Of a DNA stretch of 64,000 nucleotides, positions 18,542 to 39,118 are shown piece by piece (positions within the stretch are counted from its first letter, which is position 1; each line of letters starts with the position of its first letter). The translations under genes and the position numbers were made by a program. The notes under the pieces were generated by a model. That model worked only from the letters and a program-made list of their open reading frames with translations, was not told where the DNA came from and ran no database searches. Source of the DNA: Christensenellaceae bacterium (GTDB lineage Bacteria; Bacillota; Clostridia; Christensenellales; SZUA-584); contig CAXXFB010000001.1 of NCBI GenBank assembly GCA_963674545.2, positions 2,484,744-2,548,743 of the forward strand, read 5' to 3'.

Positions 18542-18637
18542 AACGTTCTCAAATTTCTTGATTTGAAATTATTGTGCTAAGCTTTGATTGGCACTTAAAA
18601 GTCCTGCTGTTTGATAAAAAAACAGGAGGTATTTGTA

Positions 18638-22569: not shown

Positions 22570-22612
22570 TCATCCGGTTAACGGAAAAATATATATTTTA
22601 TGGAGGTAATAA

Positions 22613-23215
22613 ATGAAATTGAAACTTAGAAAAGTCTTTATGATGATGGTTGTTGTTGCTCTGATAGTGGCTGCAACGACAGCAACGGCTCTTGCAGATG
22701 ACACAATAACAACTGGAGAAGGAGATGCATCAGCGACAGTGCCGGTTGAGGGAACAATATCGGCGTTGACTGTTTCGGTGACTCATCCAGCAACAATTGC
22801 ATACTCGATTGATCCGAATACCGGTGATACTTATGGTATCATAGCTCCTGAAATTACGCTGGTTAATAACACCTTGGTTCCTGTCAGAGTTACAGTTGAG
22901 TCGATGTTTGCTACTCCCGGCGGCACATTGCAGTTCGCCGATGTACTGCCTGCAGATAAGGATTGGGCAAATCTCAATGTTGCAGATTCAAAAGAGTTTA
23001 TTGCACTTGGGTTAAAAATCCCACCTAATGTTATGGAATGGAATGCAGGATATAACGAAGGCACCTATTACGCAGCGGATATGACGATGGTTGAGTTTGG
23101 AACTTTAAACTATGGCTGCATGGGTGTTCTCACGCTTGTTGCTAACCATGGTCTGGCATTTGACCAGGCATATACTTCGATGCATAGCTTATTTTTCATG
23201 TTTGATTTGGTGTAG
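22613..23215 (+). CDS. Secreted protein of unknown function
   Basis: GGAGG RBS and signal peptide 'MMMVVVALIVAATTATALA'. Confidence 0.55.
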   Translation: MKLKLRKVFMMMVVVALIVAATTATALADDTITTGEGDASATVPVEGTISALTVSVTHPATIAYSIDPNTGDTYGIIAPEITLVNNTLVPVRVTVESMFATPGGTLQFADVLPADKDWANLNVADSKEFIALGLKIPPNVMEWNAGYNEGTYYAADMTMVEFGTLNYGCMGVLTLVANHGLAFDQAYTSMHSLFFMFDLV

Positions 23216-23313
23216 TTATAAGTAATTAAGTAATAAATGTAGCTGGAGTACCGGATGACTATATCCAGCTATATTAGCTTATATTTGAAATCAAATTAAT
23301 CTGGTGATAAGAT

Positions 23314-23341
23314 AAAAGCACGTCAGAAACGACGTGCTTTT
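23314..23341. terminator. Strong bidirectional terminator
   Basis: AAAAGCACGTC-agaaac-GACGTGCTTTT. Confidence 0.7.
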
Positions 23342-23388
23342 AAAACTTTATCGAACAGGAAGTAATTATTCTGTCCTATCCGAAATTA

Positions 23389-23398
23389 TGGCGGAGAG
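23389..23398. repeat. Copy of the tRNA-Ser 3' end (TGGCGGAGAG), candidate left att core of the mobilisable island
   Basis: Identical 10-mer to 39169-39178, and 11 of 12 positions if extended. It lies in an intergenic region at the expected element edge. Confidence 0.5.
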
Positions 23399-23481
23399 AG
23401 AAGCCACCGAATCGATGCACTCAAAATGAAAATAGTAGAATATAAGTAGTTCAGCTAAAACTATTTTGAGGAGTATTGATT

Positions 23482-23802
23482 ATGAAAAAAAGAATCGAAA
23501 ATAGCATAGAGTACGAATTAATAGGTGACATTTCGTATCCAAAACTTGAGAGTAAAAACGGAGATACTAGGCTTGGAGCGTATGGATTAATGCGGCTAAA
23601 ATATCTTGAGCAGAATAAATCCGGGTTATATGAGCAATTATTTTTAGCCGGAGACTTGTTTAGTCACTGCAAAGAGATTGAGCTTCAAGCAAAGCAGATG
23701 AAGTATATGCTTGTTAAGCAATGTATTACGAAGTATATCGATATTCTGCAGGCATTTGATATTGCTGAGGAAACGGTAAAGCAAGATTTGATTTATTGCT
23801 AA
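23482..23802 (+). CDS. TnpV-like transposon protein
   Basis: The ATG at 23482 lies 8 nt after GAGGAG. 'LGAYGLMRLKYLEQNKSGLYEQLFLAGDLFSHCKEIELQA' resembles the TnpV family of Tn4451-type elements. Confidence 0.45.
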   Translation: MKKRIENSIEYELIGDISYPKLESKNGDTRLGAYGLMRLKYLEQNKSGLYEQLFLAGDLFSHCKEIELQAKQMKYMLVKQCITKYIDILQAFDIAEETVKQDLIYC

Positions 23803-23816
23803 TCTGTAAAGCTGAT

Positions 23817-23848
23817 AAGCAGCCTGCGAACTAATTTTCAGGCTGCTT
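23817..23848 (+). terminator. Terminator-like hairpin after the tnpV-like gene
   Basis: AAGCAGCCTG-12 nt-CAGGCTGCTT. The downstream T-run is weak. Confidence 0.45.
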
Positions 23849-23862
23849 ATTCTATCACGGTT

Positions 23863-23985
23863 ATGATGTGAGAAGAAATTACCTATGTTATTGTGATGTG
23901 AGTAAAAAATGAACGATTTTACCTATGAGCAATTTTTACCTATGAAAAATAAACATGGGTAAAAAATGCAGAATTTCTACCCATG
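23863..23985. repeat. Cluster of short repeats (TTTTACCYATG x5 and TGATGTGAG x2) upstream of the Fic/R-M operon
   Basis: Motif copies end at 23887, 23927, 23944 and 23985, with an inverted copy at 23954-23967. CATGGGTA/TACCCATG forms an 8-bp inverted repeat. Confidence 0.7.
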
Positions 23986-24047
23986 TCCTCTTGCAAAGTG
24001 TAAATAATTACTATATAATGTTTTCATATTGATTTGGAGTGTTCTTT

Positions 24048-25127
24048 ATGAAGGATTTTAAGCTTAATCCTCTTCCACCAAGAGGAAAATTAGAAACAAC
24101 ACGGGTACTGAAGCAATTATCAGCCTCACATCGTGCGTTGGCTGAATTGAATGGATATGCTAATATTATTCCAAACAAAAATATACTAATCAATGCTGTT
24201 ACGATCAATGAGGCCAAAGACAGTTCTGAGGTTGAAAACATAATAACAACGCATGATGAGTTATATAAAGCAATGGCTCAGAATTCAAATAGAAACAGCG
24301 CAAGTAAAGAAGTTATAAACTATCGTACTGCATTGTGGTACGGATATGAATTCGTAAAGTCAAATGAAAGGCTTACGATAAATGCAATTGTTGATATTCA
24401 GAAAAAGATTGAGAATAATGATGCTGGGATTCGATCCCAGCCAGGCACGAAGCTAATTAATGATGCAACAGGCGAAATTGTATATACTCCACCGGAAAGT
24501 AAGGACGAGATAATTACTCTGCTAAAAAATCTTGAGCAATATATCAATACTGATGATGATTCAATAGATCATCTTATGAAACTAGCTATAATTCACTATC
24601 AATTTGAAGCAATACATCCATTTTATGATGGTAATGGGCGTACCGGAAGAATCATCAATATTCTGTATTTAGTGTTGAAAGGCTTGCTAGACAGCCCGAT
24701 ACTATACCTTAGTAAATATATCATAAGAAATAAGACTGCATATTATAAGCTAATTAAAGAGGTCAGCACAAATGGTAATTGGGAAGATTGGATACTGTTT
24801 ATTTTAGCTGGAATTGAAGAGACCGCAGAGGAAACATTGCTGATGGTGAAGAATATCCATAATGAATTAAGCCATTATGTTGATGATTTGAGAAATGAGT
24901 TACCTAAGCTCTATTCAAAAGAACTTGTTGAATTATTATTCTTTGAGTTTTATACGAAGATTATTTATATCCAAGAAGGTTTAGGTGTATCCAGAAAAAC
25001 CGCAGTTACATACCTTAATGAACTTGAGGATAAAGGATTTTTAACATCGGAGCGAGTTGGAAAAGAGCGTATTTTTTTGAATCAAAGATTGTTAAATGTG
25101 GTAAAAAGCGCTGCTGAAAGAATATAA
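24048..25127 (+). CDS. Fic-family protein (AMPylase-type) with C-terminal winged-helix region
   Basis: The ATG at 24048 follows GGAG. It has the canonical Fic motif 'HPFYDGNGRTGR'. Confidence 0.9.
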   Translation: MKDFKLNPLPPRGKLETTRVLKQLSASHRALAELNGYANIIPNKNILINAVTINEAKDSSEVENIITTHDELYKAMAQNSNRNSASKEVINYRTALWYGYEFVKSNERLTINAIVDIQKKIENNDAGIRSQPGTKLINDATGEIVYTPPESKDEIITLLKNLEQYINTDDDSIDHLMKLAIIHYQFEAIHPFYDGNGRTGRIINILYLVLKGLLDSPILYLSKYIIRNKTAYYKLIKEVSTNGNWEDWILFILAGIEETAEETLLMVKNIHNELSHYVDDLRNELPKLYSKELVELLFFEFYTKIIYIQEGLGVSRKTAVTYLNELEDKGFLTSERVGKERIFLNQRLLNVVKSAAERI

Positions 25128-25174
25128 AGATTAACTAATATTATAGGCATATTAGCAACCCAAGGGGTAAATAC

Positions 25175-27715
25175 ATGAAAAAAGAGGCAAAGGCAAGGCT
25201 CAAGATTAATAATTTACTCAGAGAATCAGGATGGCGTTTTTTTGACGAGGGGAATAAACCTGCAAATGTTGCTGTTGAACTAAATGTAAAAATGACAACA
25301 ACTCAAGTAAATGAATACGGCGAAGACTTTGAAAAAACTACTAACGGTTTTATTGATTTTCTATTACTTGATGAAAATGGGAAACCTTATATTGTGTTGG
25401 AAGCTAAATCCGAGGATAAAAATCCATTGGTTGGCAAAGAGCAAGCAAGAAAATATGCAAAAAGCTTATATGTAAAATACGTTATCTTATCCAACGGAAA
25501 TATTCATTACTTTTGGGATATTGAAAAAGGCAATCCGCAAATCGTTGCAGGTTTTCCAAGTTATGAATCATTAAGAGATAGTAAGACATTCTCGGCAGAC
25601 CCGTATGCGCTATATAAAGAAGATATTAAAGATGATTATATAGCAGTTACACAAATTCCGAGATATGCAGATGATCCAAGATATCAAGACGAAACACAGA
25701 GGTCAGAATATATTGATGATACAGGGATTCGGTTCCTGAGAAAGTATCAAATAAACGCTATAAAAGCTTTACAAAAAGCTGCTAAGAAGGGCAATAAACG
25801 ATCTCTCTTCGAAATGGCAACAGGAACAGGGAAAACGCTCACCTCTGCAGCTATCATAAAATTATTTTTAAGAACTGGATGTGCTAATCGAGTTTTATTC
25901 CTTGTAGACAGACTAGAATTAGAAAACCAGGCTCTTAAGAATTTCGTCAGTTATCTTAAGAATGATTATCGCACTGTCATATACAAAAGGAATCCTGAAG
26001 ATTGGCGAAAAGCTGAAATTGTTGTTTCGACTGTCCAAACCCTACTTTCAAACAACAGATATAAAAGGATATTCAGACCTACCGACTTCGATTTAATAAT
26101 ATCGGATGAAGCGCACAGGTCAATAAACGGTAACAGCAGAGCCGTGTTTGAATATTTTCTAGGATATAAATTAGGATTAACTGCAACCCCCAAAAATTAT
26201 ATTAAAAATGTCGATGTCGAAAATATTCAGACATATGATCCAAGAGCGTGGGAACGCAGGCAGTTGCTTGATACATATAAAACATTTGGTTGTGAGAGCG
26301 GAGAGCCGACATTCAGCTATAGTCTTATAGACGGAGCAAATGATCCTTATGGTCCATATCTAATAAATCCTATAACTGTGGATGCGAGAACAGAAATAAC
26401 GACACAACTATTATCGGATAAGGGATATGCTATCGTTAATGGTGGCGACGAAGATGAAGAAGATCAGGAAGAGTTATATTTTGCCAGGCATTTTGAAAGA
26501 CGATTTTTCTCGGAGGAGACCAACAGGATTTTTTGTAAAACGATAATGGAAAATGCTTTGCATGATCCTGTTTCCGGAGAGATCGGTAAAACCATTGTTT
26601 TTGCAGTAAGCCGAAAGCATGTAGCTAAAATAACTCAGATACTCAACGAATATGCTGAACATATATATCCCGGGAAGTACAATTCCGATTTTGCGATGCA
26701 AATAACTTCTGATATATCAAATGTTCAAGAGTATACTGTAAACTTCCAAAACAACAATTTGAGTGGATGGACAAAGTTCATTGAGAATTATAAAAGTTCA
26801 AAAACAAGGGTTTGTGTTACTGTCGGTATGATGACAACAGGATATGACTGCCAGGATTTGTTGAATGTTGTTCTAATGCGCCCGATTTTTTCGCCGACCG
26901 ATTTTGTGCAGATTAAGGGAAGGGGTACGAGGATGTTTACATTTGAGCATTCTCAAAAAATGAATGGTATATCAGAAAAGGATTCCTTACCTAAGAATAA
27001 TTTCAAGTTGTTTGACTTCTTCGGGAACTGTGAGTATTTTGAAGAGAAATTCAATTATGACGAGGTTATTAAACTACCGAGAAAATCATCGTCAGTGGGA
27101 ATTGCCGGAGAACCGCAAACAGTTACCATAGGATATGGATTTGAGAATTTACTTCCAGATCCTCTTAAAACGATTCAAGAAACGCAAATTGGTAGCGAAG
27201 GCATGAAAATCGATCGCAAGCTGTATGAGAAATTTGAGGAGAAGATGCAGCAAGACGATTATGTCAAACAGCAATATCAGCAGGATAACATCAAGGAGGT
27301 TATGCGGTATCTGCAAGATAATGTGTTTGATAAGCCAAAAGATTATTTTAATTTGGAAAAGCTTCGCCGATCTATTAACGTTGACAGGCGTGTAAGCCTG
27401 CGTGAAATACTGGATAAGATATTTGGGAGCGTTCCATATTTCAAATCTAGGCGTGAAGTAATCGACGATGAGTTTGAAGGTTATTGTCTTACTCATGATA
27501 TAAATACCGAAAAATATTATGATATGAAGAATTTTTTCGAAGCCTATCTTACAAGTAAAGATATCAATCGTATCATAGAAGATAAAAAATATCAGAATCT
27601 ATCGACAAACCCGCGTTTTACATTTAACGAGCTTAGATCGCTGGGCAAGACCAATATGCTTTCAATAGTAGATTATATAAAGGATAATGTTAACACCAAC
27701 CAATTTTTATACTAG
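25175..27715 (+). CDS. hsdR: Type I restriction enzyme R subunit (nuclease + SF2 helicase)
   Basis: N-terminal PD-(D/E)XK 'FIDFLLLD...VLEAKSE', helicase motif I 'MATGTGKTLT' and motif II 'SDEAHRS'. Confidence 0.85.
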   Translation: MKKEAKARLKINNLLRESGWRFFDEGNKPANVAVELNVKMTTTQVNEYGEDFEKTTNGFIDFLLLDENGKPYIVLEAKSEDKNPLVGKEQARKYAKSLYVKYVILSNGNIHYFWDIEKGNPQIVAGFPSYESLRDSKTFSADPYALYKEDIKDDYIAVTQIPRYADDPRYQDETQRSEYIDDTGIRFLRKYQINAIKALQKAAKKGNKRSLFEMATGTGKTLTSAAIIKLFLRTGCANRVLFLVDRLELENQALKNFVSYLKNDYRTVIYKRNPEDWRKAEIVVSTVQTLLSNNRYKRIFRPTDFDLIISDEAHRSINGNSRAVFEYFLGYKLGLTATPKNYIKNVDVENIQTYDPRAWERRQLLDTYKTFGCESGEPTFSYSLIDGANDPYGPYLINPITVDARTEITTQLLSDKGYAIVNGGDEDEEDQEELYFARHFERRFFSEETNRIFCKTIMENALHDPVSGEIGKTIVFAVSRKHVAKITQILNEYAEHIYPGKYNSDFAMQITSDISNVQEYTVNFQNNNLSGWTKFIENYKSSKTRVCVTVGMMTTGYDCQDLLNVVLMRPIFSPTDFVQIKGRGTRMFTFEHSQKMNGISEKDSLPKNNFKLFDFFGNCEYFEEKFNYDEVIKLPRKSSSVGIAGEPQTVTIGYGFENLLPDPLKTIQETQIGSEGMKIDRKLYEKFEEKMQQDDYVKQQYQQDNIKEVMRYLQDNVFDKPKDYFNLEKLRRSINVDRRVSLREILDKIFGSVPYFKSRREVIDDEFEGYCLTHDINTEKYYDMKNFFEAYLTSKDINRIIEDKKYQNLSTNPRFTFNELRSLGKTNMLSIVDYIKDNVNTNQFLY

Positions 27716-27723
27716 GAGCTAAA

Positions 27724-30189
27724 ATGCTGAATATTGATATGAAAAGAAAGATCAACACATTAAGAGATATACTTGTAGGCAGAATACCCGACCCGAAAAC
27801 GCAGGTGGAACAGATTACCCTTGCCATGATTTTTAAGTTTATGGACGATATTGATACGGAATTCACCGGAGAATGGGGCGGTGATAGAACCTTTTTTGTA
27901 AAAACCAATAAAATGGATTACTCGAAATACGCTTGGAGCAATATCATGTCACCTCAGGTAAGCGGTGAAGAACGTTCAAATCTCTATCGTGAAGGCATAG
28001 AAAATATGGCAATGAATCCTCATATCCCGCAGCTTTTCAGGGATATTTTCAGGAATGCCTATCTGCCATTTCGTGATCCTGAAACCATCAATATGTTCTT
28101 AAAGGAAATAGATGATTTAAAATATGACAACAGCGAAGATTTGGGGAACGCCTTTGAGATGCTCCTGTCTATTATGGGATCTCAGGGAGATGCAGGACAA
28201 TTCAGGACTCCGAGGCACATTATAGATATGATAGTTGAAATCGTTGACCCCGCTAAAACCGACAGTATACTTGATCCAGCATGCGGTACTGCAGGATTTT
28301 TAATTTCTGCATATAAACATATCCTTAACCGAAATAAAGATAAAAACGGCAATTCCACTTTAGCGCCAGATGAAAGGAATGTGCTTACAACCAACATCAC
28401 TGGCTACGATATCTCCCCCGACATGGTGCGTTTATCTAATGTCAACTTGTATCTTCACCACTTCCCTGAACCTCATATTCATATTTATGATACGCTTACG
28501 AGTGAAGCAAGATGGGATGATACATATGACGTTATTCTGGCAAATCCGCCGTTCATGACACCGAAAGGTGGAATCAATCCTCATAACCGTTTTAGAGTAA
28601 ATGCAAGGCGCAGTGAGGTTTTATTTGTTGACTATATCGCTGAGCATCTAAACCCGAACGGTAAAGCAGGAATCATTGTGCCAGAAGGTATAATTTTTCA
28701 GACATCTAACGCATATAAAGAGCTTAGAAAGATGCTGATAGAGGATAATTACTTGTATGCTGTCATTTCATTGCCGGCAGGTGTTTTCAATCCATATTCA
28801 GGTGTCAAAACAAGTATACTTCTTTTTGACCGCACAATAGCAAAACAAACAGACAATATCCTATTTGTGAAAATAGACAACGACGGCTTCGACCTCGGAG
28901 CGCAAAGAAGAAAATTAAAGTTAAGTGAAATTCCTCGAACAATTGAAGTAATACAGAAATATAAGAAGGCTATTATATCAGGTGAAACAATTCAATCAGA
29001 AGAATTTCAAAATGATTATTCAACATTAGCTTCAAAAAAAGAAATAGTTGATAAAGATTGTGTTCTTGTAGGGGAACGATATAGAAAGACAAGTCATATT
29101 CATAATCACAATTGGGATATGGTTGAACTTGTCGAAGTGCTTAAATATGAACAGCCAACTAATTATTTAGTTGAATCAGTAGAATATAAGGATGAGTATC
29201 CTATTCCCGTACTTACAGCAGGTAAAAGTTTTATTTTAGGATATACGAACGAAATAGAAGGTATATATTCTTCTGGATTACCTGTAATAATATTTGATGA
29301 TTTTACAACTGCCACACAACTTGTAGATTTTAAATTCAAAGTTAAATCAACAGCTATGAAGATATTAAGTGCTAACGAGGGAAAAGCAGATATTAAATAT
29401 CTTTACTATACTATGCAAAACATTTCGTTTGATAGCAGTACTCATAAGAGGTATTGGATATCGCAATATTCAAAAATAAAAATCCCCCTTCCCCCTTTAT
29501 CCTTTCAACAGGAGATTGTTGAAGAGATAGAAAGTTATAAGAAAATTATAGACGGCGCAAGACAGGTGGTAGAGAACTATAAACCTATGATAAAGATTGA
29601 CCCCGAGTGGGAGATGGTCGAGCTGGGAGAGGTTTGTGAGTTTAATCCGAAAAAATCTGAAATTCGAGACCTTAGTGGTGATACAGAAGTTTCCTTTGTG
29701 CCTATGGTGGTAGTAAACGAAAATGAAATGTTTTTTATGCCAACTGAAACACGAAAACTGAAGGAAGTATATTCGGGATATACGTATTTTGCAGAGGGTG
29801 ATGTTTTACTTGCAAAAGTTACACCTTGTTTTGAAAATGGGAAATCAGGTATTGCTAGAAATTTGAATAATAATATTGGGTTTGGTTCAAGTGAATTTTA
29901 TATTTATAGAGCAAGCAATAAAGTTCTGCCAGAATGGATTTATATATTTATTTCAAGCAATAATTTTAAAAAAGAGGGGGAAAAGCATCTTACTGGAACT
30001 GGTGGATTGAGGCGAGTTGATAAAAGTTTTGCATCTTCTTACAAAATACCTATTCCGACAATAGATAAGCAAAAAGAAGCTATTGATAAAATATATGAAG
30101 AGCAAAAAATCATTGAATCAAACAAGCAACTTATAGGTATTTTTGAGCAAAAAATAAAAGACAAGATTTCCGAGGTTTGGGGGGAGTAG
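27724..30189 (+). CDS. Fused type I methyltransferase-specificity protein (HsdM-HsdS in one polypeptide)
   Basis: AdoMet motif 'LDPACGTAGFL' and catalytic 'NPPF'. The C-terminal ~370 aa hold two target-recognition-domain-like halves, each followed by a conserved helix ('PLPPLSFQQEIVEEIE', 'PIPTIDKQKEAIDKI'). No separate hsdS is nearby. Confidence 0.75.
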   Translation: MLNIDMKRKINTLRDILVGRIPDPKTQVEQITLAMIFKFMDDIDTEFTGEWGGDRTFFVKTNKMDYSKYAWSNIMSPQVSGEERSNLYREGIENMAMNPHIPQLFRDIFRNAYLPFRDPETINMFLKEIDDLKYDNSEDLGNAFEMLLSIMGSQGDAGQFRTPRHIIDMIVEIVDPAKTDSILDPACGTAGFLISAYKHILNRNKDKNGNSTLAPDERNVLTTNITGYDISPDMVRLSNVNLYLHHFPEPHIHIYDTLTSEARWDDTYDVILANPPFMTPKGGINPHNRFRVNARRSEVLFVDYIAEHLNPNGKAGIIVPEGIIFQTSNAYKELRKMLIEDNYLYAVISLPAGVFNPYSGVKTSILLFDRTIAKQTDNILFVKIDNDGFDLGAQRRKLKLSEIPRTIEVIQKYKKAIISGETIQSEEFQNDYSTLASKKEIVDKDCVLVGERYRKTSHIHNHNWDMVELVEVLKYEQPTNYLVESVEYKDEYPIPVLTAGKSFILGYTNEIEGIYSSGLPVIIFDDFTTATQLVDFKFKVKSTAMKILSANEGKADIKYLYYTMQNISFDSSTHKRYWISQYSKIKIPLPPLSFQQEIVEEIESYKKIIDGARQVVENYKPMIKIDPEWEMVELGEVCEFNPKKSEIRDLSGDTEVSFVPMVVVNENEMFFMPTETRKLKEVYSGYTYFAEGDVLLAKVTPCFENGKSGIARNLNNNIGFGSSEFYIYRASNKVLPEWIYIFISSNNFKKEGEKHLTGTGGLRRVDKSFASSYKIPIPTIDKQKEAIDKIYEEQKIIESNKQLIGIFEQKIKDKISEVWGE

Positions 30190-30191
30190 GC

Positions 30192-31145
30192 ATGGAAGAA
30201 TACATTGATAAATTACGAAGTTTTCTACCTATAAACTGTGATTACAATCCAGATGATGAATCGGATGATACTGAATATCGAGAATATATTCGGTATCTTC
30301 GGGACGCTTTTGTTGAAAATATTAGCAACGGAAAGTATCAATTCGCACTCCTAGCGTTTCATATGATGTTCATGTCCTTTATTTACAGGCAGTTCTGGTG
30401 CCTAAAAGAACATGATTATGAGAAAGTCAGAAGATTATGCGAAGCCAATGCACGTTTCGGTAACGTTGCAAAGACTTTTGATATTTCTGAAATCCCAGAA
30501 AAAGATGTCATTGATAATACAATGAATGTATTAAGATTCCATGTGAATAGAAGATCTGATGTTAAGAATTTTGTTGATACCAGGGATAAATGTGCACATG
30601 CTAGTGGATATATTCAGTACAATGCAGATAAAGTAAAAACTCATTTTGACAATGTTCTTGAATATGTTGAACAAATTCATAATAAATCAAAGGAAAGTGT
30701 TTTTAATTCTTTTTTAAAAGTTTTGCATGAATACTGGGATTCTGATAGCTATAGTAGTTACTTATCTGTCGAACAGGCTACTAGAATAATTAAAACTATG
30801 GGGTTATCTCCATCAGACATTTTATATATCCAATCTATTGATATTGATATAGTTCTAAATGGGAGAAATCAAGGTACTTATTTAATTTCATACTATATAA
30901 TCCAAATTGTGTTAAAATCATATATTGTTGATAATTACTATCAGGCATCTGATGAATATGATTGTACAGACGAAATTGATCAGTTTAAAAAACACCTCCT
31001 AACCTTAGAATTTAAGGATTATGCAGATATTGAAATTGAACTTGAAGATGAAGTGCTGGCAATTAATGAATTTTATGCATATACACTAGTTGATGATTTC
31101 ATGGAAGAAATCAATTTATTAAGACGTGAAAAAGAGGCTGTCTAG
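30192..31145 (+). CDS. Hypothetical protein (318 aa) co-transcribed with the type I R-M genes
   Basis: The ATG at 30192 lies 2 nt after the hsdMS stop and is preceded by GGGGAG. No recognisable catalytic motif was seen, apart from 'RDKCAHASG', which faintly resembles the DUF4145-type R..N.AH signature. Confidence 0.55.
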   Translation: MEEYIDKLRSFLPINCDYNPDDESDDTEYREYIRYLRDAFVENISNGKYQFALLAFHMMFMSFIYRQFWCLKEHDYEKVRRLCEANARFGNVAKTFDISEIPEKDVIDNTMNVLRFHVNRRSDVKNFVDTRDKCAHASGYIQYNADKVKTHFDNVLEYVEQIHNKSKESVFNSFLKVLHEYWDSDSYSSYLSVEQATRIIKTMGLSPSDILYIQSIDIDIVLNGRNQGTYLISYYIIQIVLKSYIVDNYYQASDEYDCTDEIDQFKKHLLTLEFKDYADIEIELEDEVLAINEFYAYTLVDDFMEEINLLRREKEAV

Positions 31146-31244
31146 ATACTCATTAGGAATCTTGATGGGGGGTACTGGTTAAGTAATAGTATTATTGGAA
31201 TGTGATTATACCGATTTAATAAGATAATGTAGCGAGGAATAAAT

Positions 31245-31871
31245 ATGAGTAAATTGTTTAAGTGGAATATGTTTGTAACATCATTTTTGCCACTTTGGGT
31301 ATCGATTATTATAATTTCTATTTGGACTATTTTTGGTAATGTTTCAAATACTCTTGATTCTAACAACACTGTATTTGTATGTATTTTTAACAATATAACA
31401 GAATTAGTAATGATTTTTGTCATTACAATACTTGTAATTTCTAGTATGGTAGGTATTAACAAATTCATAAAAGAACATAAAGAAGCTGAAGTAGCGCCTA
31501 AAGGTAAAATAATGAGGGCTCGGAAAGCAAATAAACTAACTTCAGAATTCTTGCTTGCCTACATCTTGCCGATGATAGCTTTTGATTTCAGTGATCTTAA
31601 ATTTATTGTTCTGTTTGTAATATACTTTTTTACACTAGCTTTTCTATGTATTAGAAATAACAATGTTTATACGAATATTTTCTTGGAATTTAGAGGGCAT
31701 AAAATTTATGATTGTGATATTGAATGTATGATAACAGATAAACCCAAGGTATATGAAGATTGTGTAATTATTAGTTCACAAGATCTTTCTAGCAAGGTAG
31801 GAACCGAAATAAAATATTGGGATTTCGAGAAATACATTTATTTAGATTTACATAAAAAGGAGAAGAAATGA
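31245..31871 (+). CDS. Four-TM membrane protein, KwaA-like by architecture
   Basis: GAGGAA RBS. The hydrophobic segments are 'FVTSFLPLWVSIIIISIWTIF', 'LVMIFVITILVISSMVGI', 'FLLAYILPMIAFDF' and 'FIVLFVIYFFTLAFLCI', followed by a ~70-aa soluble tail. Confidence 0.5.
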   Translation: MSKLFKWNMFVTSFLPLWVSIIIISIWTIFGNVSNTLDSNNTVFVCIFNNITELVMIFVITILVISSMVGINKFIKEHKEAEVAPKGKIMRARKANKLTSEFLLAYILPMIAFDFSDLKFIVLFVIYFFTLAFLCIRNNNVYTNIFLEFRGHKIYDCDIECMITDKPKVYEDCVIISSQDLSSKVGTEIKYWDFEKYIYLDLHKKEKK

Positions 31872-32803
31872 ACAAGCAAGAAATTAGTTGCGTATTTGAT
31901 TCCATAGAGAGCAATTCCTATGACTGGGCATTATACTTTTTTAGTATTGATAGAAGAAACTCTATGCCTTTCAGTTTTCACAAGGTTAGATTCAAAAATC
32001 TTGAGTATTTACCTGAGTATGCAAAAAACCTTGTATCGATAACAAAGCAATATCAGGTAGATCAAGCAACAGCAGTCCAAGCGTATGACGGGTTTAATAC
32101 GAAAGTTTCTTGCGATACCATTACTACTGAAAGCGATCTATTATCTGAAGAGTGGCAGTTATTTAAAACTGCCATTGAAAACGCATCAGATGAAAAGATC
32201 AGCGGAAAGGTTAAGGGGTATGTATTAATTGGACATCCAGTTGATAACGATGAACTTAAACCTATTATTTTTGTTAAATGCGGGAATCCAATAATTGATT
32301 TAACGAATAAAAAACGAGTAGCATATATAGCTACTGAAAAAGACGAATTGGATTTAATTTCAGATGATATTTATCGATTATATTTGACAGTTGATTTTTT
32401 CCATTATGTTGGCAGCATATATGCGTTTAATCATTCTTTTGAGAAGATCTTTAATGTTGAGGGGACACTTAAAAGGGTTAAAGCTCATGCTATAGAAGAG
32501 ATTATTTTAGTTGATGCATTTAATGACACAGAAGCATTTAAAGGTTTTTCGAAGAGTTATACACAAGCCAGGACTTTTATTACTCTGAATAAAGAGAGAC
32601 TGGAAAGAATATCTAAAGCAGATCAGCGTACAAACATAGCAGGAATGCTGCAGATTGAAATAGATAGTCAGAATAAATTTATTGTAGCTGATGCTGAAAA
32701 AGCATCGTTATTGATTAGATATCTTTGTTATAAAATATTTAGAGATGATGAAAGCAAAGACGTTTTAGAAGGAGAGGCTGTTAGTAAAATTAATTTTACA
32801 TAA
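31868..32803 (+). CDS. Soluble 311-aa partner protein, KwaB (DUF4868)-like by size and context
   Basis: Its start overlaps the upstream stop (ATGA at 31868-31871) and follows AGGAGAAG. Homology is not verifiable by eye. Confidence 0.45.
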   Translation: MNKQEISCVFDSIESNSYDWALYFFSIDRRNSMPFSFHKVRFKNLEYLPEYAKNLVSITKQYQVDQATAVQAYDGFNTKVSCDTITTESDLLSEEWQLFKTAIENASDEKISGKVKGYVLIGHPVDNDELKPIIFVKCGNPIIDLTNKKRVAYIATEKDELDLISDDIYRLYLTVDFFHYVGSIYAFNHSFEKIFNVEGTLKRVKAHAIEEIILVDAFNDTEAFKGFSKSYTQARTFITLNKERLERISKADQRTNIAGMLQIEIDSQNKFIVADAEKASLLIRYLCYKIFRDDESKDVLEGEAVSKINFT

Positions 32804-32865
32804 TCTAGAATGATGCACGATAGAGTAAGAATAACTGGGTAAGATATAAGTAGTTGGAGGGGAAA

Positions 32866-33792
32866 ATGGCCATACCAAAATACAATGAATTTATGAAACC
32901 AATATTAAATTTACTAAGCGATACGAAAGAACATCATCGTAAAGAAATGTATCAGGTTTTCACAGCTCAATTTCAGTTAACAAAGGATGAAATGGAAGAG
33001 TGGTTACCGAGTGGAAATCAGCTTGTTTATAAAAATCGTATCGGGTGGGCATTGACATATTTGAAAAAGGCAGGACTTGTATTATCGCCTACAAGATCGG
33101 TATATAAAATAACTGAAGATGGTTTAAAAGTTATCGCAGAGAATCCAAATGAAATTGATAGTAGTTATTTAAGTAAATTTGAATCTTTTAACGGGTTTAT
33201 TAATAAATCGAATGAGAATGCCGAGAAAGATAATAAAGTATCACTTAATAAATTGGAAGAATCTCCGCAAGAGCAGCTTGATATAGCATATAAAACAATT
33301 TCTAATACGCTCGAAGACGATTTGTTACAAGAAATCATAAGGCAGTCGCCTGATTTTTTTGAGAAATTAGTTGTAGATTTACTTGTTGCTATGGGATATG
33401 GCGGCAGCAAAATAGAGAATAGTAGAGTTCTCGGCAAGTCAGGGGACGAAGGCATTGATGGAATAATTAAAGAGGATAAATTGGGTTTTGACACAATCTA
33501 CGTTCAAGCAAAACAATGGGATCCAGCAAGAACAGTAGGGAGACCTGAATTGCAAAAATTTGTGGGAGCTTTAACAGGTCAAGGAGCAACGAAAGGTGCT
33601 TTCCTTACTACGGCTAGATTCTCTAATGAAGCTGAAGAATATGTTAAAAAACAACATGCTTGTAAAATAGCATTGATTGATGGGAAAAGCTTAACTTCTT
33701 TGATGGTTGAAAATAATCTTGGAGTATCTATAGAAAATACATATCATATTAAGCGTATTGATACAGATTATTTCGATTCAGCTGAAATCTAA
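32866..33792 (+). CDS. mrr: Mrr-family type IV restriction endonuclease
   Basis: The ATG at 32866 follows GGAGGGG. N-terminal winged helix 'IPKYNEFMKPILN' and catalytic core 'GDEGIDGII...IYVQAKQW'. Confidence 0.85.
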   Translation: MAIPKYNEFMKPILNLLSDTKEHHRKEMYQVFTAQFQLTKDEMEEWLPSGNQLVYKNRIGWALTYLKKAGLVLSPTRSVYKITEDGLKVIAENPNEIDSSYLSKFESFNGFINKSNENAEKDNKVSLNKLEESPQEQLDIAYKTISNTLEDDLLQEIIRQSPDFFEKLVVDLLVAMGYGGSKIENSRVLGKSGDEGIDGIIKEDKLGFDTIYVQAKQWDPARTVGRPELQKFVGALTGQGATKGAFLTTARFSNEAEEYVKKQHACKIALIDGKSLTSLMVENNLGVSIENTYHIKRIDTDYFDSAEI

Positions 33793-33814
33793 TGAGTTAT
33801 GTCTGAATCGAAGT

Positions 33815-34327
33815 TTATGTTGATATTTTTTTAGTAGCAAAGTCAATCTGTTTAACAGTGTCATTAACAATATCGGCAAACTCCTTTTGACAAGAACATC
33901 CGGCTTTGAATATATCTTTGGGATTGGCATTGGCAATAATTTTTGAATGATAAGAGGTCATTGAAAGAAGATATAGAACTTCTCTTTCAATGCTTTTTTC
34001 ATGTGCGATTTTCAACACTTCACATAGATTACTGAGTAAATCTTGGCTAGCCGAAGCCGGTAAATGATAGATTATATCTTCCAGATTATCAACTTGATCT
34101 TTAGTATATCGGTGATCCTGTTTTGATTTCAAATTTGAGTTTCCGACCAAATAATCAACTGACACATTAAAATAATTTGCAGCTTTAACGGCAAAATGAA
34201 TGTCGGGAGTTCTCCGGTTACTCTCATAAAAATTGATTGTCATTCGAGCAACTCCAAGTTCATCGGCAAGTTCCTGCTGTGTCAGATTCTTTTCGTCACG
34301 CAATTCTTTAAGTATCCTGTTAAACAT
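33815..34327 (-). CDS. XRE-family HTH transcriptional regulator
   Basis: Start at the Met of 'MFNRILKELRDEKNLTQQELADELGVARMTINFYE'. The upstream part of the tracked ORF is unlikely to be coding. Confidence 0.8.
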   Translation of the reverse strand: MFNRILKELRDEKNLTQQELADELGVARMTINFYESNRRTPDIHFAVKAANYFNVSVDYLVGNSNLKSKQDHRYTKDQVDNLEDIIYHLPASASQDLLSNLCEVLKIAHEKSIEREVLYLLSMTSYHSKIIANANPKDIFKAGCSCQKEFADIVNDTVKQIDFATKKIST

Positions 34328-34414
34328 ATCTCTGCTCCAATCGCTTGATATATGATTATTATAGCACGGCACCGATGTGATTACAATAAAAATCAAATTA
34401 CTATAAACATACTA

Positions 34415-34443
34415 TTGCAATCATTATTATTTTGTGATACTAT
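34415..34443 (+). promoter_or_regulatory. Candidate promoter of the mobilisation operon, overlapped by inverted repeats
   Basis: -35 TTGCAA (34415-34420), a 17-nt spacer, and -10 TACTAT (34438-34443). Inverted repeats are TTGTGAT (34432-34438) with ATCACAA (34476-34482), and TATATG (34441-34446) with CATATA (34457-34462). Confidence 0.35.
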
Positions 34444-34545
34444 ATGTAAGCAATCGCATATAAATTACGATAACAATCACAATGGGAGAGGAATATGAGA
34501 TATAGGAAACGAAAAAGACGATGCCAAAACTTCATATCATTAACA

Positions 34546-34585
34546 AAGAGCTGACGCCGATACAGGTGGTCAGCTCTTTTAGTTT
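34546..34585 (+). terminator. Terminator/attenuator hairpin in the leader of the mobilisation operon
   Basis: AAGAGCTGAC-13 nt-GTCAGCTCTT followed by TTAGTTTT. Confidence 0.5.
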
Positions 34586-34654
34586 TGAATGTATTTATGG
34601 TAGTCGGACAGGGATTCGAAAATAACATGTAATGATTGAAATTGGAGGTGAAAT

Positions 34655-34915: not shown

Positions 34916-35349
34916 AAAAAATCAAACAGTAGTACATATCGTAATACATGAAAAGCTATTGCCACCCATAGTGTACACCATAGCGACGCCAAGGCATGTC
35001 ATATACTGGAGAATCCGTATTACACATTGTAAAGCAATTAAAATTCATGCCACCAACAGTGTGTGCCAAACAAATAAACTCTATAAAAACGTAACTAACA
35101 ATGTAAAAATTAGCTTAATCGTTACGGTTATTAAAGCAGAAACCGAATCGGATAAATTGAGCGATATTTTTTTCCAGCCTGTAAGAAATCTGATGAAAGC
35201 AAAAGGGGAACTGAAGCTGAGAAGCTGGAGATACTGTCTTTGCAAGCATGGCACATGTGCCCACAAATGCCCGCTTGACAGGGAGTTCCCACTCCCTATA
35301 ACCCACTTAGATGGCGGTAAACCGCTTAGAATTCGCAAAGGAGAATTGT

Positions 35350-35658
35350 ATGAGAACAAGGAGCAACATGATAAAAGTCATGCTGAACGATAAAGAGCTG
35401 GAGCATCTCAATAAACAGGTTGAAACCAGCGGACTGAACAAATCGGCTCTGCTCAGAAAGCTCATTAGCGGATTAGCAATCAATCCTGCTCCAGTAGAGG
35501 AATATCATAAAATCTGCGGTTTGTTATCGAATGTTACAAATAACATAAACCAAATCGCAAGGCAGGCAAATACAACGGGATATATCAGTGAAGAAAAGCT
35601 GGACGCTGTAATCCTTCTTATTCGTAAATGCTGGCAGCAGATGCGGGAGCTTAGATAA
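35350..35658 (+). CDS. mobC: MobC-family relaxosome accessory protein
   Basis: The ATG at 35350 follows AAAGGAGAA. 'IKVMLNDKELEHLNKQVETSGLNKSALLRKLI...NINQIARQAN' is typical MobC. Confidence 0.75.
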   Translation: MRTRSNMIKVMLNDKELEHLNKQVETSGLNKSALLRKLISGLAINPAPVEEYHKICGLLSNVTNNINQIARQANTTGYISEEKLDAVILLIRKCWQQMRELR

Positions 35659-37154
35659 TGGCAATTACTAAAATCATCGTTATACGAGAACGATTGGACA
35701 AGCGTGTAAGCTATGTGCTGAATGAGGATAAGACGGGGCTTGGCAATGTGCTGGAGTATGCAATGGACAAAGATAAAATTCAAGGAGAGCAGAAATTGTA
35801 TGAGAGTGCTGTTAACTGTGATAAAGAAACAGCTTTTCAGGATATGATGCAAACCAAAAAGCATTTTGGTAAAACGGACAAAGTGCAAGGTTATCATATC
35901 ATTCAATCCTTTAAACCGGACGAGGTAACGCCGGAGTTAGCTCATCAGATCGGCGTCGAGTTTGCGCAGAAATGTTTTGGTAAATATGAAGCCGTTGTCG
36001 GAACGCACCTGGACAAAAATCATATTCATAATCATGTGGTAGCAAATTCCGTGTCTTTTATAGACGGAAGGAAATATCGCAACAATTTTAAAGACTACTA
36101 TGGGGATATTCGAGGCATATCCGATGCGCTATGCAAGGAATATGGTTTGTCCATCATAGAAGAAAATGAAGAAAAGAAATCGGTTAGCTATGTAGAATGG
36201 CTTGCCAGAAACAAAGGCAAAACGTCATGGCAGACTATTATTAGAAACGATATAGATGACTGTATAAAACAAGCCTTTAATTTTGGCAACTTCCTTATGC
36301 TGATGGAACATAAAGGCTATGAAATCAAACAAGGCAAATATTTATCACTCAAACCTATGGGAAGAGAACATTTCTCCAGAGGATATAAGCTGGGAAATGA
36401 ATATTCGTTTGTTAATATCAAAAACAGAATTGAAGGCAAAAATCTGACATTGGAGTTCAAAGATGTAGAGTACCATATGCAGAAAAAACATGAGTTTAAC
36501 CCATATCCAAAAGTGAAGCCGGGCAGCTTCGAAGCGCTGTGTTTGCATTATATGTATCTGCTTGGGCAGGTCAAGAAGAATCAGGTTCCTGATAATACAG
36601 CCAATGTTTTTAAGGAAGATTTAATTAGATTTGAGAAGATGACTAAAACATTTAATTTTGTACATGACAGAAATATTGAAACAATAGAGCAAGTGCTGAA
36701 TTATAAAGATAGATGCTATGAGAAAATCAACGGGTTACAAGCGACAAAGATAGAATTACATGCCGAGAAAGACAAACATAAACAGGCGTTCGATTTGCTT
36801 AGAAAAGTCAAGATGCTTGAGAAACCACATAGGTTGTATTTTGATGGCTATTTCGAGATGCAGGATGAACATGATGAATATCTGAAAGCAAGTAACCATC
36901 TCAAAGAAATGGGATATGGGACTGCGAAAGAGATTGAATGTTTAGAGAAAGTAAAGAGCAGTATTGAGGGTCGGTTGTCGTCAAACGATGAAGAAATACG
37001 AAGTTTTAGAAAAGAAATACGTTTATGCAATACCGCTCTTGAATTGAATAATCATATTGAAAAGAAAACTCTGGAGCTTGAAGAACAAGATAACAGCGAT
37101 GTGCAACCGAGACTGACCGTCAAAGAGATGGCGAAAAATTTATTGGAAAGGTAA
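35658..37154 (+). CDS. Relaxase / mobilisation nuclease (MobA/VirD2 family)
   Basis: Its start overlaps the mobC stop by 1 nt. The histidine triad 'HLDKNHIHNHVV' is present. Confidence 0.85.
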   Translation: MAITKIIVIRERLDKRVSYVLNEDKTGLGNVLEYAMDKDKIQGEQKLYESAVNCDKETAFQDMMQTKKHFGKTDKVQGYHIIQSFKPDEVTPELAHQIGVEFAQKCFGKYEAVVGTHLDKNHIHNHVVANSVSFIDGRKYRNNFKDYYGDIRGISDALCKEYGLSIIEENEEKKSVSYVEWLARNKGKTSWQTIIRNDIDDCIKQAFNFGNFLMLMEHKGYEIKQGKYLSLKPMGREHFSRGYKLGNEYSFVNIKNRIEGKNLTLEFKDVEYHMQKKHEFNPYPKVKPGSFEALCLHYMYLLGQVKKNQVPDNTANVFKEDLIRFEKMTKTFNFVHDRNIETIEQVLNYKDRCYEKINGLQATKIELHAEKDKHKQAFDLLRKVKMLEKPHRLYFDGYFEMQDEHDEYLKASNHLKEMGYGTAKEIECLEKVKSSIEGRLSSNDEEIRSFRKEIRLCNTALELNNHIEKKTLELEEQDNSDVQPRLTVKEMAKNLLER

Positions 37155-37161
37155 AAGAAAA

Positions 37162-37344
37162 TTGGATAAAAACTGCAATATAAAAATCAAGCAAGAAAAC
37201 ACATATGGAATCGGCAAGGATTTTATGATATCACAAATTAAAATAGGAAAAACAACATTCATTGTAGCCAGCTATTTCGAGAAAGAAAAATCGTTTATCG
37301 ATGCTATGGAGCAGGTTATAGAACACAAAATTAAAGCATCATAA
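37162..37344 (+). CDS. TnpW-like small protein
   Basis: 'KIGKTTFIVASYFEKEKSFIDAMEQVI' resembles the 'IG.TTY.V..HFS' pattern of the TnpW family. The start is uncertain (TTG at 37162 or ATG at 37225). Confidence 0.35.
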   Translation: MDKNCNIKIKQENTYGIGKDFMISQIKIGKTTFIVASYFEKEKSFIDAMEQVIEHKIKAS

Positions 37345-37429
37345 TTGGACTTGGCACGGATTGCGGAGTATACTAAGCATAGGCTGAACTACTTCGTAAT
37401 CTGCGCTGTTTTCATTAGAAAGGAACAAT

Positions 37430-39118
37430 ATGCAGAAGAATTACAAAGTAGGATTATATTTAAGACTTTCACGTGATGATAACAATTCTGAAAGTGAAAG
37501 CATGAGCATTTCAAATCAAAGGAGTATGCTCACGGACTATGTTAAAGAAAGGGGCTGGGAAGTAGAAGAGATTTATATCGACGATGGTATTTCGGGCGTT
37601 ACCTTTGACCGACCGGCATTTAACCGTTTGATAAAGGATATTGAGAAAGAACGTATCAATATGGTTATTACAAAAGACTTGTCTAGACTTGGGCGCAACT
37701 ATTTAAAGGTTGGCGAATACACGGATTATTTCTTTCCAAAGCATAAGGTCAGATATATTGCTGTAAATGATAATTATGACAACGATAAGGAAGATGATTT
37801 CGTAGCATTTCGCAATATATTCAATGAGCATTATGCCAAGGATACTTCAAAGAAGATCAAATCGGTTAAGAAGTCGCAGATGAAACAGGGATTGTTTATC
37901 GGCAGCCAGCCTGCAATGGGATACATGCGTGACCCAAATGATAAGCACAAGCTGATTGTTGACGAAGAAGCTGCTGATATCATCAGACGAATGTTTCACA
38001 GATATTCTATAGGTGATAGCGCAAGGCATATTGCGGATACGTTTAATCAAGAAGGAGTTCCGACACCGAGAGAATACTTCTTCAATCGAATCGATAAGCC
38101 GAATCCCTATACAGGCGATGCTATAACCTGGGGCAGCTCAACCATCATTCGCATGTTGGGCAATCAAGTGTATATTGGTCACATGTGCCAAGGTAAACGC
38201 CAGAAGAAATCGTTCAAGATGAAACGCAGGGATGTTATACCGCAGGATGATTGGATAGTTGTTGAGAACACACACGAGCCGATAATCGATGAGATTACCT
38301 GGAATCGTGTGCAGACTATTCTCAAACGCAACAAAAGGAGCGCTAAGCCTAGATTACGGGATGATAAGACAGTTGCTCTGTTCTCTGGTAAAGTGCGCTG
38401 TGCGGACTGTCAGGCGGTGATGACGTATACTTATTCAAAGAATACTGTGTATAAGCCATACTACAAGTATCGGTGCAGTACATACAGCAATCAGGGCAAA
38501 ACAGCCTGCAGCTATCATGCAATTTTAGATGATGAACTGAAAGCCATCGTACTCGCAGAGATTCATAAGTTTTCGAACATAGCATCAATCTATGAAGATG
38601 AATTGCTAAAAAAGCTGATTGATATTAACAGTAACATAAAGTTGAAAAACAACAGCTTTCTTGAAAAGCAGATTCGCAGGACAAACAGAGAGCTTCAGGG
38701 AATTGCGCCGAAGATTGATGTATTGATTGACCAGATGGCAAACGGTAATATTTCAGAGCAGATGTTTAAGAAGCTAATGAATCAGTATGAGCAGAAGCAG
38801 AATGATTTGTCTGAAAAGCTGGCGGAGCAAAAGGCTGAATTGTCTAGAATCAAAGACGATATAGGCAATATACAGCACTTAGTTGATTGCTTCAAAAATC
38901 GAGTATACATTAAAGACCTTGACCGAGAAACGATTGTAGAGCTAATTGACTTTATCGAAGTGTTCAAGAAAGAAAAGGTAGGAACCGAATATTTTCAGAG
39001 GGTTGATATCCATTTCAACTTTATTGGTCAGATATCAACTGAACATTTTCAAGCGTTGAAGGATTACATTCAACAGCAAGAACAAAAGGACCAAAATAAA
39101 ATGACACAGGTTGTATGA
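37430..39118 (+). CDS. Large serine recombinase (element integrase)
   Basis: 'YLRLSRDDN' Ser motif, 'TKDLSRLGRN', and Cys cluster 'CADCQAVMTY...YRCSTYSNQGKTACSYH'. It ends 50 nt from the tRNA 3' end. Confidence 0.9.
   Translation: MQKNYKVGLYLRLSRDDNNSESESMSISNQRSMLTDYVKERGWEVEEIYIDDGISGVTFDRPAFNRLIKDIEKERINMVITKDLSRLGRNYLKVGEYTDYFFPKHKVRYIAVNDNYDNDKEDDFVAFRNIFNEHYAKDTSKKIKSVKKSQMKQGLFIGSQPAMGYMRDPNDKHKLIVDEEAADIIRRMFHRYSIGDSARHIADTFNQEGVPTPREYFFNRIDKPNPYTGDAITWGSSTIIRMLGNQVYIGHMCQGKRQKKSFKMKRRDVIPQDDWIVVENTHEPIIDEITWNRVQTILKRNKRSAKPRLRDDKTVALFSGKVRCADCQAVMTYTYSKNTVYKPYYKYRCSTYSNQGKTACSYHAILDDELKAIVLAEIHKFSNIASIYEDELLKKLIDINSNIKLKNNSFLEKQIRRTNRELQGIAPKIDVLIDQMANGNISEQMFKKLMNQYEQKQNDLSEKLAEQKAELSRIKDDIGNIQHLVDCFKNRVYIKDLDRETIVELIDFIEVFKKEKVGTEYFQRVDIHFNFIGQISTEHFQALKDYIQQQEQKDQNKMTQVV

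Follow-up and report, generated by a model that had tools for sequence, protein, structure and literature searches.

A gene for a predicted HEPN ribonuclease holds the conserved third place in a horizontally mobile HsdR-like and HsdM-S-fusion module

What does a gene do that begins directly behind a restriction-modification (R-M) operon, and does it belong to that operon or to the genes that follow it? This question is raised by a 317-residue protein, P0001, encoded at 30192..31145 on the + strand of a 64,000-nucleotide stretch of a Christensenellaceae genome (assembly GCA_963674545.2, contig CAXXFB010000001.1, positions 2,484,744 to 2,548,743; the whole analysed stretch is referred to as the window). 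From its open reading frame (ORF), its family, its modelled fold and its position behind a fused HsdM-HsdS gene (M-S), P0001 is described here as a HEPN-domain protein and its gene as the conserved last member of a horizontally mobile three-gene module, in which it follows an HsdR-like gene (R) and the M-S gene. The protein belongs to a family that carries a HEPN motif and, in the model, a HEPN fold, and the gene is obligately linked to R and M-S and not to the Kiwa genes downstream. The product of the HEPN gene is probably a back-up weapon of the restriction system and not a part of Kiwa.

The frame runs from an ATG at 30192-30194 to a TAG at 31143-31145 and comprises 318 codons with the stop; the length of 318 amino acids given in a preliminary description of the window was one too many. 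The M-S gene ends with a TAG at 30187-30189, followed by the two nucleotides “gc” and then the ATG of the HEPN gene, and a Shine-Dalgarno-like GGGGGAG can be read on the + strand at 30180-30186, within the 3' end of hsdM-S and 5 nt before the ATG. Both the 2-nt spacing and the separate ribosome-binding site had been reported before and are confirmed, with the site reading GGGGGAG. The ORF list also contains an alternative TTG start at 30177; the ATG is favored because homologues begin at a conserved MEEY/MxEY N-terminus. Judged from this arrangement, the HEPN gene is probably translated directly after M-S via translational coupling. A promoter and terminator scan of 23300-34600 gave counts equal to those of shuffled sequences and is uninformative on transcription units; it placed no terminator-like site at 31145-31245, before kwaA. 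The gene is present in one copy in its own genome.

Once considered an orphan, P0001 has a substantial family. A word-indexed search of 5.8 billion proteins yielded 11 close homologues with 34-99% identity, and a profile of these 11 sequences matched 317 of 1.84 billion cluster representatives at E<=1e-3, 153 at E<=1e-10 and 43 at E<=1e-30. The majority of the family is about 240 aa long and matches profile positions ~7-215, and P0001 falls into a longer subfamily of about 300-320 aa with an additional C-terminal helical part. P0001 has no real match in Pfam, NCBIfam or PHROGs (E<=10) or in PADLOC v2.0.0 (E<=0.01), with only chance-level rows for Med31 (E 0.028) and phrog_26634 (E 0.12). A PDB sequence search with the profile built from close homologues (A1) returned a single row at E 0.27; a search with a broader profile (A2) returned TIR chains only and was rejected, as these were caused by TIR-fused rows in the alignment. 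On a Paracoccus RefSeq plasmid, the homologue is annotated “hypothetical protein”.

The position of the gene was followed across 78 related loci, collected via homologues of the HEPN protein. A pattern scan of 185,579 species genomes gave 73 loci, drawn from Bacteroidota, Chloroflexota, Ignavibacteriota, Pseudomonadota, Actinomycetota, Deinococcota, Spirochaetota, Omnitrophota, Planctomycetota, Patescibacteria and Bacillota, as well as from two archaeal metagenome-assembled genomes, one of Methanosarcinales and one of Nanoarchaeota. A locus search with the close-homologue profile found 0 loci in genome contigs, 0 in viral contigs and 1 in metagenome contigs. Sixty-six loci extend more than 2.6 kb upstream of the HEPN gene, and in 65 of these the 3 kb before it contain the end of an M-S homologue, the sole exception (L065) having the order R-HEPN-M-S. 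Where the upstream DNA exceeds 5.3 kb (59 loci), an R homologue is found in it in 56 (exceptions L006, L076 and L079). The junction between M-S and HEPN genes measures -13 to +29 nt in 62 of 77 analysable loci, a count that leaves out L031 after a failed frame test; a 1-nt overlap is the commonest arrangement (20 cases), ahead of spacings of +3 (twelve cases) and +2 (eight cases), and the HEPN gene thus usually starts near enough to the end of M-S for translational coupling. Longer junctions number nine, one through the L001 frameshift and elsewhere through a gap filled by other genes. Six carry no value: two at contig edges (L066, L068), one through the gene order of L065, and three in which M-S is nonetheless visible upstream.

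The genes found between M-S and HEPN encode an AAA_13 PrrC/RloC-type ATPase (L014:5688-7952, L015:5688-7952), SIR2 (L028:7132-7983, L081:7132-7983), DUF4357/RAMA (L037:6494-7992), DUF3800 (L070:6615-7749) and an M78 peptidase (L080:7394-7774). In these seven loci the HEPN gene stays last, and the junction resembles a cargo insertion site. Over 39 loci, the distances between pairs of methyltransferase parts correlate with those between the corresponding HEPN proteins (Pearson 0.83, a value reached by 0 of 2000 permutations), which is read as co-inheritance only because kinship among the loci inflates the test. The HEPN protein diverges faster than the methyltransferase part, by up to 77% compared to 44%.

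This census bears directly on what the preliminary description had proposed. An add-on tied to the restriction genes is what the loci show, with the same M-S upstream in 65/66 and the junctions being as tight as given above, and homologues follow hsd genes, not the Kiwa pair. The alternative suggestion, a third component of the downstream membrane module, did not hold: that module is Kiwa, KwaA/KwaB occur in 0 of the 78 related loci, and no downstream gene family is common to more than three of them.

Individual loci illustrate both the constancy of the module and its mobility. In a metagenome locus (L001), the gene that comes right after an 819-aa M-S fusion is a homologue with a frameshift, and on a Paracoccus zhejiangensis plasmid the genes for a DEAD/DEAH helicase (848 aa) and an N-6 methylase (858 aa) precede that for a 246-aa homologue, which overlaps the methylase gene by 4 nt. 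Two IMG/VR contigs carry the R / M-S / HEPN triad. On one of them (L008:1345-10623) it lies between lambda-type portal and large-terminase genes and is thus phage-borne cargo. On a scaffold from human faeces labelled “phage” (L006:3871-7586), the homologue stands 3 nt behind a single 976-aa polypeptide that combines an HSDR_N nuclease, a methylase and a target-recognition domain (TRD); this partner is type IIB/IIG-like, without a separate helicase, and the pair has two RhuM-family genes and a serine recombinase at its flanks. Truncated or frameshifted copies of the HEPN gene were seen in L001, L073, L075 and L077. Within 400 genomes of the window's own phylum, the A2 profile of the HEPN family gave one weak 35-aa match containing a stop; in a sample of 400 genomes taken likewise from this phylum, the M-S protein gave two close but truncated matches (G334, G320), the remaining matches being ordinary HsdM proteins of about 500 aa with 30-35% identity. 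By these sequence counts, both HEPN and fused M-S genes are rare in this phylum.

The first gene of the module (25175..27715, + strand) encodes an 846-aa HsdR-like subunit with an N-terminal HSDR_N nuclease, a ResIII/DEAD helicase and Helicase_C (Pfam ResIII 4.5e-38, HSDR_N_2 and Helicase_C; PADLOC REase_I 1.1e-57). The second (27724..30189, + strand) encodes the 821-aa HsdM-HsdS fusion, an N6 adenine methyltransferase followed by two TRDs (Pfam N6_Mtase 7.8e-56 and Methylase_S in two stretches; PADLOC MTase_I 2e-100 and Specificity_I 1.4e-52). Nine loci (L033, L040, L041, L045, L051, L054, L056, L057, L063) have shorter M-S proteins of 627-681 aa; that of L051, scanned with Pfam, has one TRD instead of two, and the other eight are assigned by length. 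The HEPN gene is kept with both long and short M-S forms. The “HsdMS” of P. aeruginosa PAO1 was rejected as a further example, as the accessible part of its description (PMC5358918) concerns separate hsdM, hsdS and hsdR genes and not a module of R and an M-S fusion.

What kind of protein, then, is the third gene product? The active-site signature of HEPN ribonucleases (RNases) is Rx4-6H with N, D or H after the arginine (PMC3710099). P0001 contains a predicted active-site motif of this kind, R131-D-K-C-A-H136 (30582..30599, + strand), an Rx4H with a polar residue after the R, recognized by its conservation and falling within the core FVDTRDKCAHASGFIQY. An alignment of 95 diverse sequences shows R131 to be invariant and H136 to be present in >=90%, and both are invariant in the 89 sequences without TIR fusions. 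The pattern R[N/D]xxxH is found in 72/72 locus-encoded homologues of >=170 aa and in 121/124 database homologues of >=200 aa, the residue after the arginine in the latter being N in 71 and D in 50.

A structure model provides additional support. The full-length model, built from 11 sequences, was mediocre (pLDDT, a predicted local distance difference test score, of 75.5), and a model of residues 1-220 from 89 sequences reached pLDDT 94.1 and a predicted template-modelling score of 0.90. The protein is all-helical in both, as had been anticipated from the sequence. Helices at 24-45, 49-74, 118-135 and 145-182, with a helical insert at 76-113, form the four-helix up-down bundle of the HEPN fold, in which an insert between helices 2 and 3 is frequent, and R131 closes the third core helix while H136 opens the following loop, matching the published description of the motif position (PMC3710099). 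On the basis of this model and the VIA-align matches, the HEPN domain is assigned to residues 1-~183 (30192..30740, + strand).

Comparison of the model with 48,161 chains by VIA-align placed the C-terminal HEPN domain of AbiA (8oz7) first, with Z 9.9, a root-mean-square deviation of 3.4 and 126 residues aligned, followed by the sacsin HEPN domain (3o10, Z 8.4), the AF_0298 HEPN protein (2hsb, Z 8.2) and GlnE (Z 8.2). Lower rows include SO_3166, HI0074, 1wwp, MNT-HEPN toxins, YutE, MtlR, Csm6, DrrA, LsoA and RnlA. In total, 22 of the 50 rows are HEPN by title or literature. Five further rows (TT1696, Roquin twice, YggD and HepS) we take to be HEPN as well.

Sequence models place the family near known HEPN families without including P0001. 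Among the 105 distant relatives scanned, 10 match Pfam HEPN_RiboL-PSP (PF18735), P0133 with 32.2 bits against a gathering cut-off of 28.4 and the other nine with 21-27 bits; the homologues of L007 and L051 score 23.8 and 23.0 bits, below the cut-off. A single relative touches HEPN_Swt1, and 7 of 39 relatives match PADLOC CARF_HEPN_CSX20, with a best E of 4.4e-6. Neighbors by protein language model were unnamed clusters, AF_1680 and a cluster with DUF4145 in 13% of its members. P0001 itself gave no match to PF18735 at E<=10. The preliminary description had noticed “VDTRDKCAHASG” as vaguely recalling DUF4145, and this stretch is indeed in P0001, with R131 invariant and H136 invariant or present in >=90% by alignment. 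The hint led to the right superfamily, since Rx4H is the HEPN signature and DUF4145 is a HEPN family (PMC3710099), but not to the family itself: PF13643 is unmatched by P0001 even at E<=10 and by the 105 relatives at E<=1e-3, which leaves the language-model cluster as the sole link. Membership in PF18735 or DUF4145 was therefore rejected, as P0001 fails both families' own thresholds. Taken from sequence conservation and the model, P0001 very likely belongs to the HEPN superfamily, and it is a predicted metal-independent endoribonuclease.

Behind the HEPN domain, residues 221-317 (30852..31142, + strand) form a helical extension that is present in the ~300-320-aa subfamily only and absent from the ~240-aa forms. 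It carries an invariant acidic run, I/V-E-I-E-L-E-D-E (IEIELEDE), and is modelled with pLDDT 56-91 in the full-length prediction; a fold search with it gave no informative match. Three relatives (P0023, P0025, P0054) have a TIR domain in its place. Autoinhibition, partner contact or a DNA-mimic-like patch are guesses only as to the role of the acidic run.

At the window locus the module is embedded in a defence island, with the order SoFic, HsdR-like, HsdM-S, HEPN gene, KwaA, KwaB and Mrr by Pfam and PADLOC. The SoFic-type Fic/DOC gene (24039-25127; PADLOC SoFic 8.2e-113) lies 48 nt upstream of hsdR, a placement that recalls the R-M, HEPN and DOC neighborhoods already described (PMC3710099); close Fic homologues stand between R and M-S in L014/L015 and just past the truncated HEPN gene in L075. 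Downstream, KwaA (31245-31871) and KwaB (31868-32803) form a divergent Kiwa pair (31245-32803), followed by an Mrr type IV enzyme (32854-33792), so that with Kiwa and Mrr behind the R-M module four defence systems stand in a row. Genes at 18611-21935, 23476-23802 and 35311-39118, on the flanks of the island, show that it sits on a mobile element: they encode a tandem pair of large serine recombinases, TnpV, MobC/NikA, a MobA/VirD2 relaxase and another large serine recombinase, which carries DUF4368. In 22018-23215, between the recombinases and TnpV, two ORFs encode proteins of 183 and 200 aa that are hydrophobic at the N-terminus and unmatched in Pfam.

How might a HEPN RNase serve a restriction enzyme? 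By analogy, P0001 may be a latent RNase like PrrC, restrained by the restriction complex and bringing about abortive infection once restriction has failed, a reading to which we assign a probability of roughly 0.5. The HEPN protein would associate with the restriction complex, which would keep the RNase silent; a phage that neutralizes or overwhelms restriction would release it; and the freed RNase would cut cellular and/or phage RNA and stop translation, aborting the infection. That the protein cuts RNA, that it binds the R-M complex, what triggers it and that infection is aborted are each inferred by analogy with PrrC/EcoprrI and from Anantharaman et al. 2013. EcoprrI keeps PrrC inactive and T4 Stp sets it free, the HEPN clades linked to R-M systems number at least 16, and Anantharaman et al. 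2013 proposed a latent-RNase guard role for such R-M-linked genes (PMC3710099); the accessible part of Payne et al. (bioRxiv 10.1101/2024.01.29.577857) likewise has a restriction complex masking a latent RNase. Hints of a defence function are provided by the three TIR-fused relatives, by the defence-type genes between M-S and the HEPN gene, and by SoFic, which adjoins the module in the window and lies inside it in L014/L015. Of the roles suggested in the preliminary description, an abortive-infection or anti-anti-restriction function is thus still the leading hypothesis.

Several observations weigh against the reading of P0001 as a guard RNase of HEPN type. The VIA-align Z values (<=9.9) lie within the range for which the tool itself warns that helical bundles may match by common arrangement. 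Foldseek against the PDB, a check suggested in the preliminary description, was run on both models and gave nothing at E<=0.2 (14-3-3 and nuclear-receptor rows), the HEPN matches coming from VIA-align instead. None of the HEPN models of Pfam, NCBIfam, PADLOC or PHROGs is matched by P0001 itself. The conserved acidic residue of HEPN domains is in helix 2, often within Ex3[KR] (PMC3710099), whereas E103, invariant or present in >=90% here, is in the insert (helix 103-113), neither in helix 2 nor within Ex3[KR]. P0001 has no ATPase regulatory domain, in contrast to PrrC. HEPN domains fuse to nuclease or helicase subunits and not to methylases (PMC3710099), and the HEPN gene here is coupled to M-S. 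Finally, the TIR-fused P0054 lacks the motif histidine (RNQWLK). This loss indicates that the domain can persist without the catalytic residue and hints at a second, non-catalytic role, perhaps that of an adaptor to the restriction complex.

The same linkage and motif data would also be expected if the RNase were activated when the R-M complex engages unmodified DNA, not when restriction is inhibited, with DNA and RNA of the invader attacked together. The absence of a sensor or ATPase domain of its own implies that the signal must come from a partner, which favors such a restriction-triggered RNase, and the tight coupling to M-S, the DNA-reading subunit, would fit a target-recognition signal. 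The present data do not separate this trigger from that of a guard RNase. However, a collateral RNase unleashed at each restriction event would be costly, and we know of no precedent among R-M systems, so that we consider a restriction-triggered RNase unlikely. A bolder proposal, which we also hold to be rather improbable, is that the HEPN RNase is a constitutive subunit of the R and M-S enzyme, an obligate new class of restriction system in which unmodified DNA or anti-restriction jamming would directly activate the RNase. If true, the restriction enzyme would sense DNA and have an arm for RNA degradation built in, within a module that is portable between bacteria, archaea and phages and whose effector can be swapped (HEPN or HEPN-TIR).

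Catalysis might be dispensed with altogether, the HEPN fold serving for nucleic-acid binding or scaffolding in the assembly of R and M-S, in regulation or in restriction alleviation. HEPN domains without catalysis exist, MtlR being one (PMC3710099); P0054 retains the domain despite the loss of its histidine, and the obligate linkage to R and M-S is what an accessory subunit would show. However, the invariant R, the H in 121/124 and 72/72 homologues and the N/D after the R form the pattern of catalytic HEPN domains, and engineered M-S fusions restrict with HsdR alone in the accessible part of PMC6158711, leaving a non-catalytic subunit with a low probability. An addiction toxin, whose post-segregational killing would stabilize the mobile R-M module, whose antidote would be M-S or R and which would have no direct anti-phage role, seems to us slightly less probable again. 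It could account for structural matches to HEPN toxins from toxin-antitoxin pairs (5yep, 7ae2, 8xdj), for modules on plasmids, prophages and a recombinase/relaxase element, and for the truncated or frameshifted copies in some loci. However, R-M systems act as addiction modules unaided, and the TIR fusions and adjacent defence cargo point to immunity. That the gene is an independent passenger between the R-M operon and Kiwa, or a third Kiwa component, is highly improbable: the defence-island setting (SoFic, R-M, Kiwa, Mrr) and the lack of a terminator-like site before kwaA would allow it, but the absence of KwaA/KwaB and of any widely shared downstream gene, the M-S linkage in 65/66 loci and the correlated divergence all speak against it. 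Membership in Kiwa was rejected as contradicted by the 78-locus census.

The guard reading invites comparison with PrrC/EcoprrI, a type Ic system of E. coli that likewise has a HEPN-type RNase gene in or with the hsd genes. PrrC has an N-terminal ABC ATPase (AAA_13-type) and is encoded between the hsdS and hsdR genes of a system with the classical three subunits, whereas P0001 is without an ATPase, is encoded by the last gene, and has a short HsdR and a fused M-S as partners. No ATPase domain of the PrrC/RloC architecture was found in P0001 or the 105 relatives scanned, and P0001 shows no sequence match to PADLOC or Pfam models that would join it to PrrC. The family is distinct from PrrC/RloC-type AAA_13 proteins, because genes for both stand side by side in L014/L015. 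With the R-M-linked HEPN families DUF4145, AbiJ, AbiU2, AbiA-CTD, Abi2/Swt1 and Ribo L-PSP-HEPN (PMC3710099), P0001 shares the all-alpha HEPN fold, the Rx4-6H motif with N/D and the R-M operon setting. The nearest Pfam model to the P0001 family is HEPN_RiboL-PSP and the nearest structure the AbiA C-terminal HEPN; P0001 and 95/105 relatives match none of the Pfam models of those families, and there is no L-PSP fusion and no ParB neighbor. The P0001 family may be one of the 16 R-M-linked HEPN clades of PMC3710099.

A further comparison is offered by stand-alone HEPN defence proteins such as HEC-08 and HepS, which resemble P0001 in having a HEPN domain and a C-terminal extension. HEC-08, as far as the accessible part of its description goes (Payne et al., bioRxiv 10.1101/2024.01.29.577857), requires the His of its Rx4-6H motif for defence. 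HEC-08 consists of DUF3644 and zinc ribbons, is embedded in Hma and acts alone, whereas the P0001 family is always tied to R and M-S. HepS is among the VIA-align fold matches with Z 5.7, and the P0001 family has no PADLOC v2.0.0 model of its own. The enzyme itself shares the HSDR_N-ResIII helicase-nuclease and the N6_Mtase-TRD fusion with type I and type IIB-IIG enzymes whose M and S are fused, and the polypeptide of L006, with its nuclease fused to M-S, is built as in type IIB/IIG. Engineered M-S fusions are functional with HsdR in the accessible part of PMC6158711. The descriptions of fused M-S type I and IIB-IIG enzymes that were consulted mention no conserved third HEPN gene, and the open-access literature searched contained no description of the three-gene R / M-S / HEPN module.

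A HEPN RNase gene tied to an R-M system is of a kind that has been in print since 2013, with PrrC as the worked example. To our knowledge, PrrC is the only one to have been worked out among HEPN RNases beside restriction genes, which as a group were predicted in 2013 to be second-line suicide weapons (PMC3710099). Proteins of the present family measure only about 240-320 aa and are without an ATPase, and across many phyla their genes keep strictly to a single compact enzyme of R and M-S; this small size, lack of an ATPase and strict linkage would make the family a simple, portable test case for the control of an RNase by a restriction complex. The gene is also a defence gene missed by the Pfam, NCBIfam, PADLOC v2.0.0 and PHROG models, and if the assignment is confirmed, annotation pipelines should call the module as a three-gene system. 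The interest of the family resides in this strict, phylum-spanning three-gene architecture and in the simplicity of its predicted RNase.

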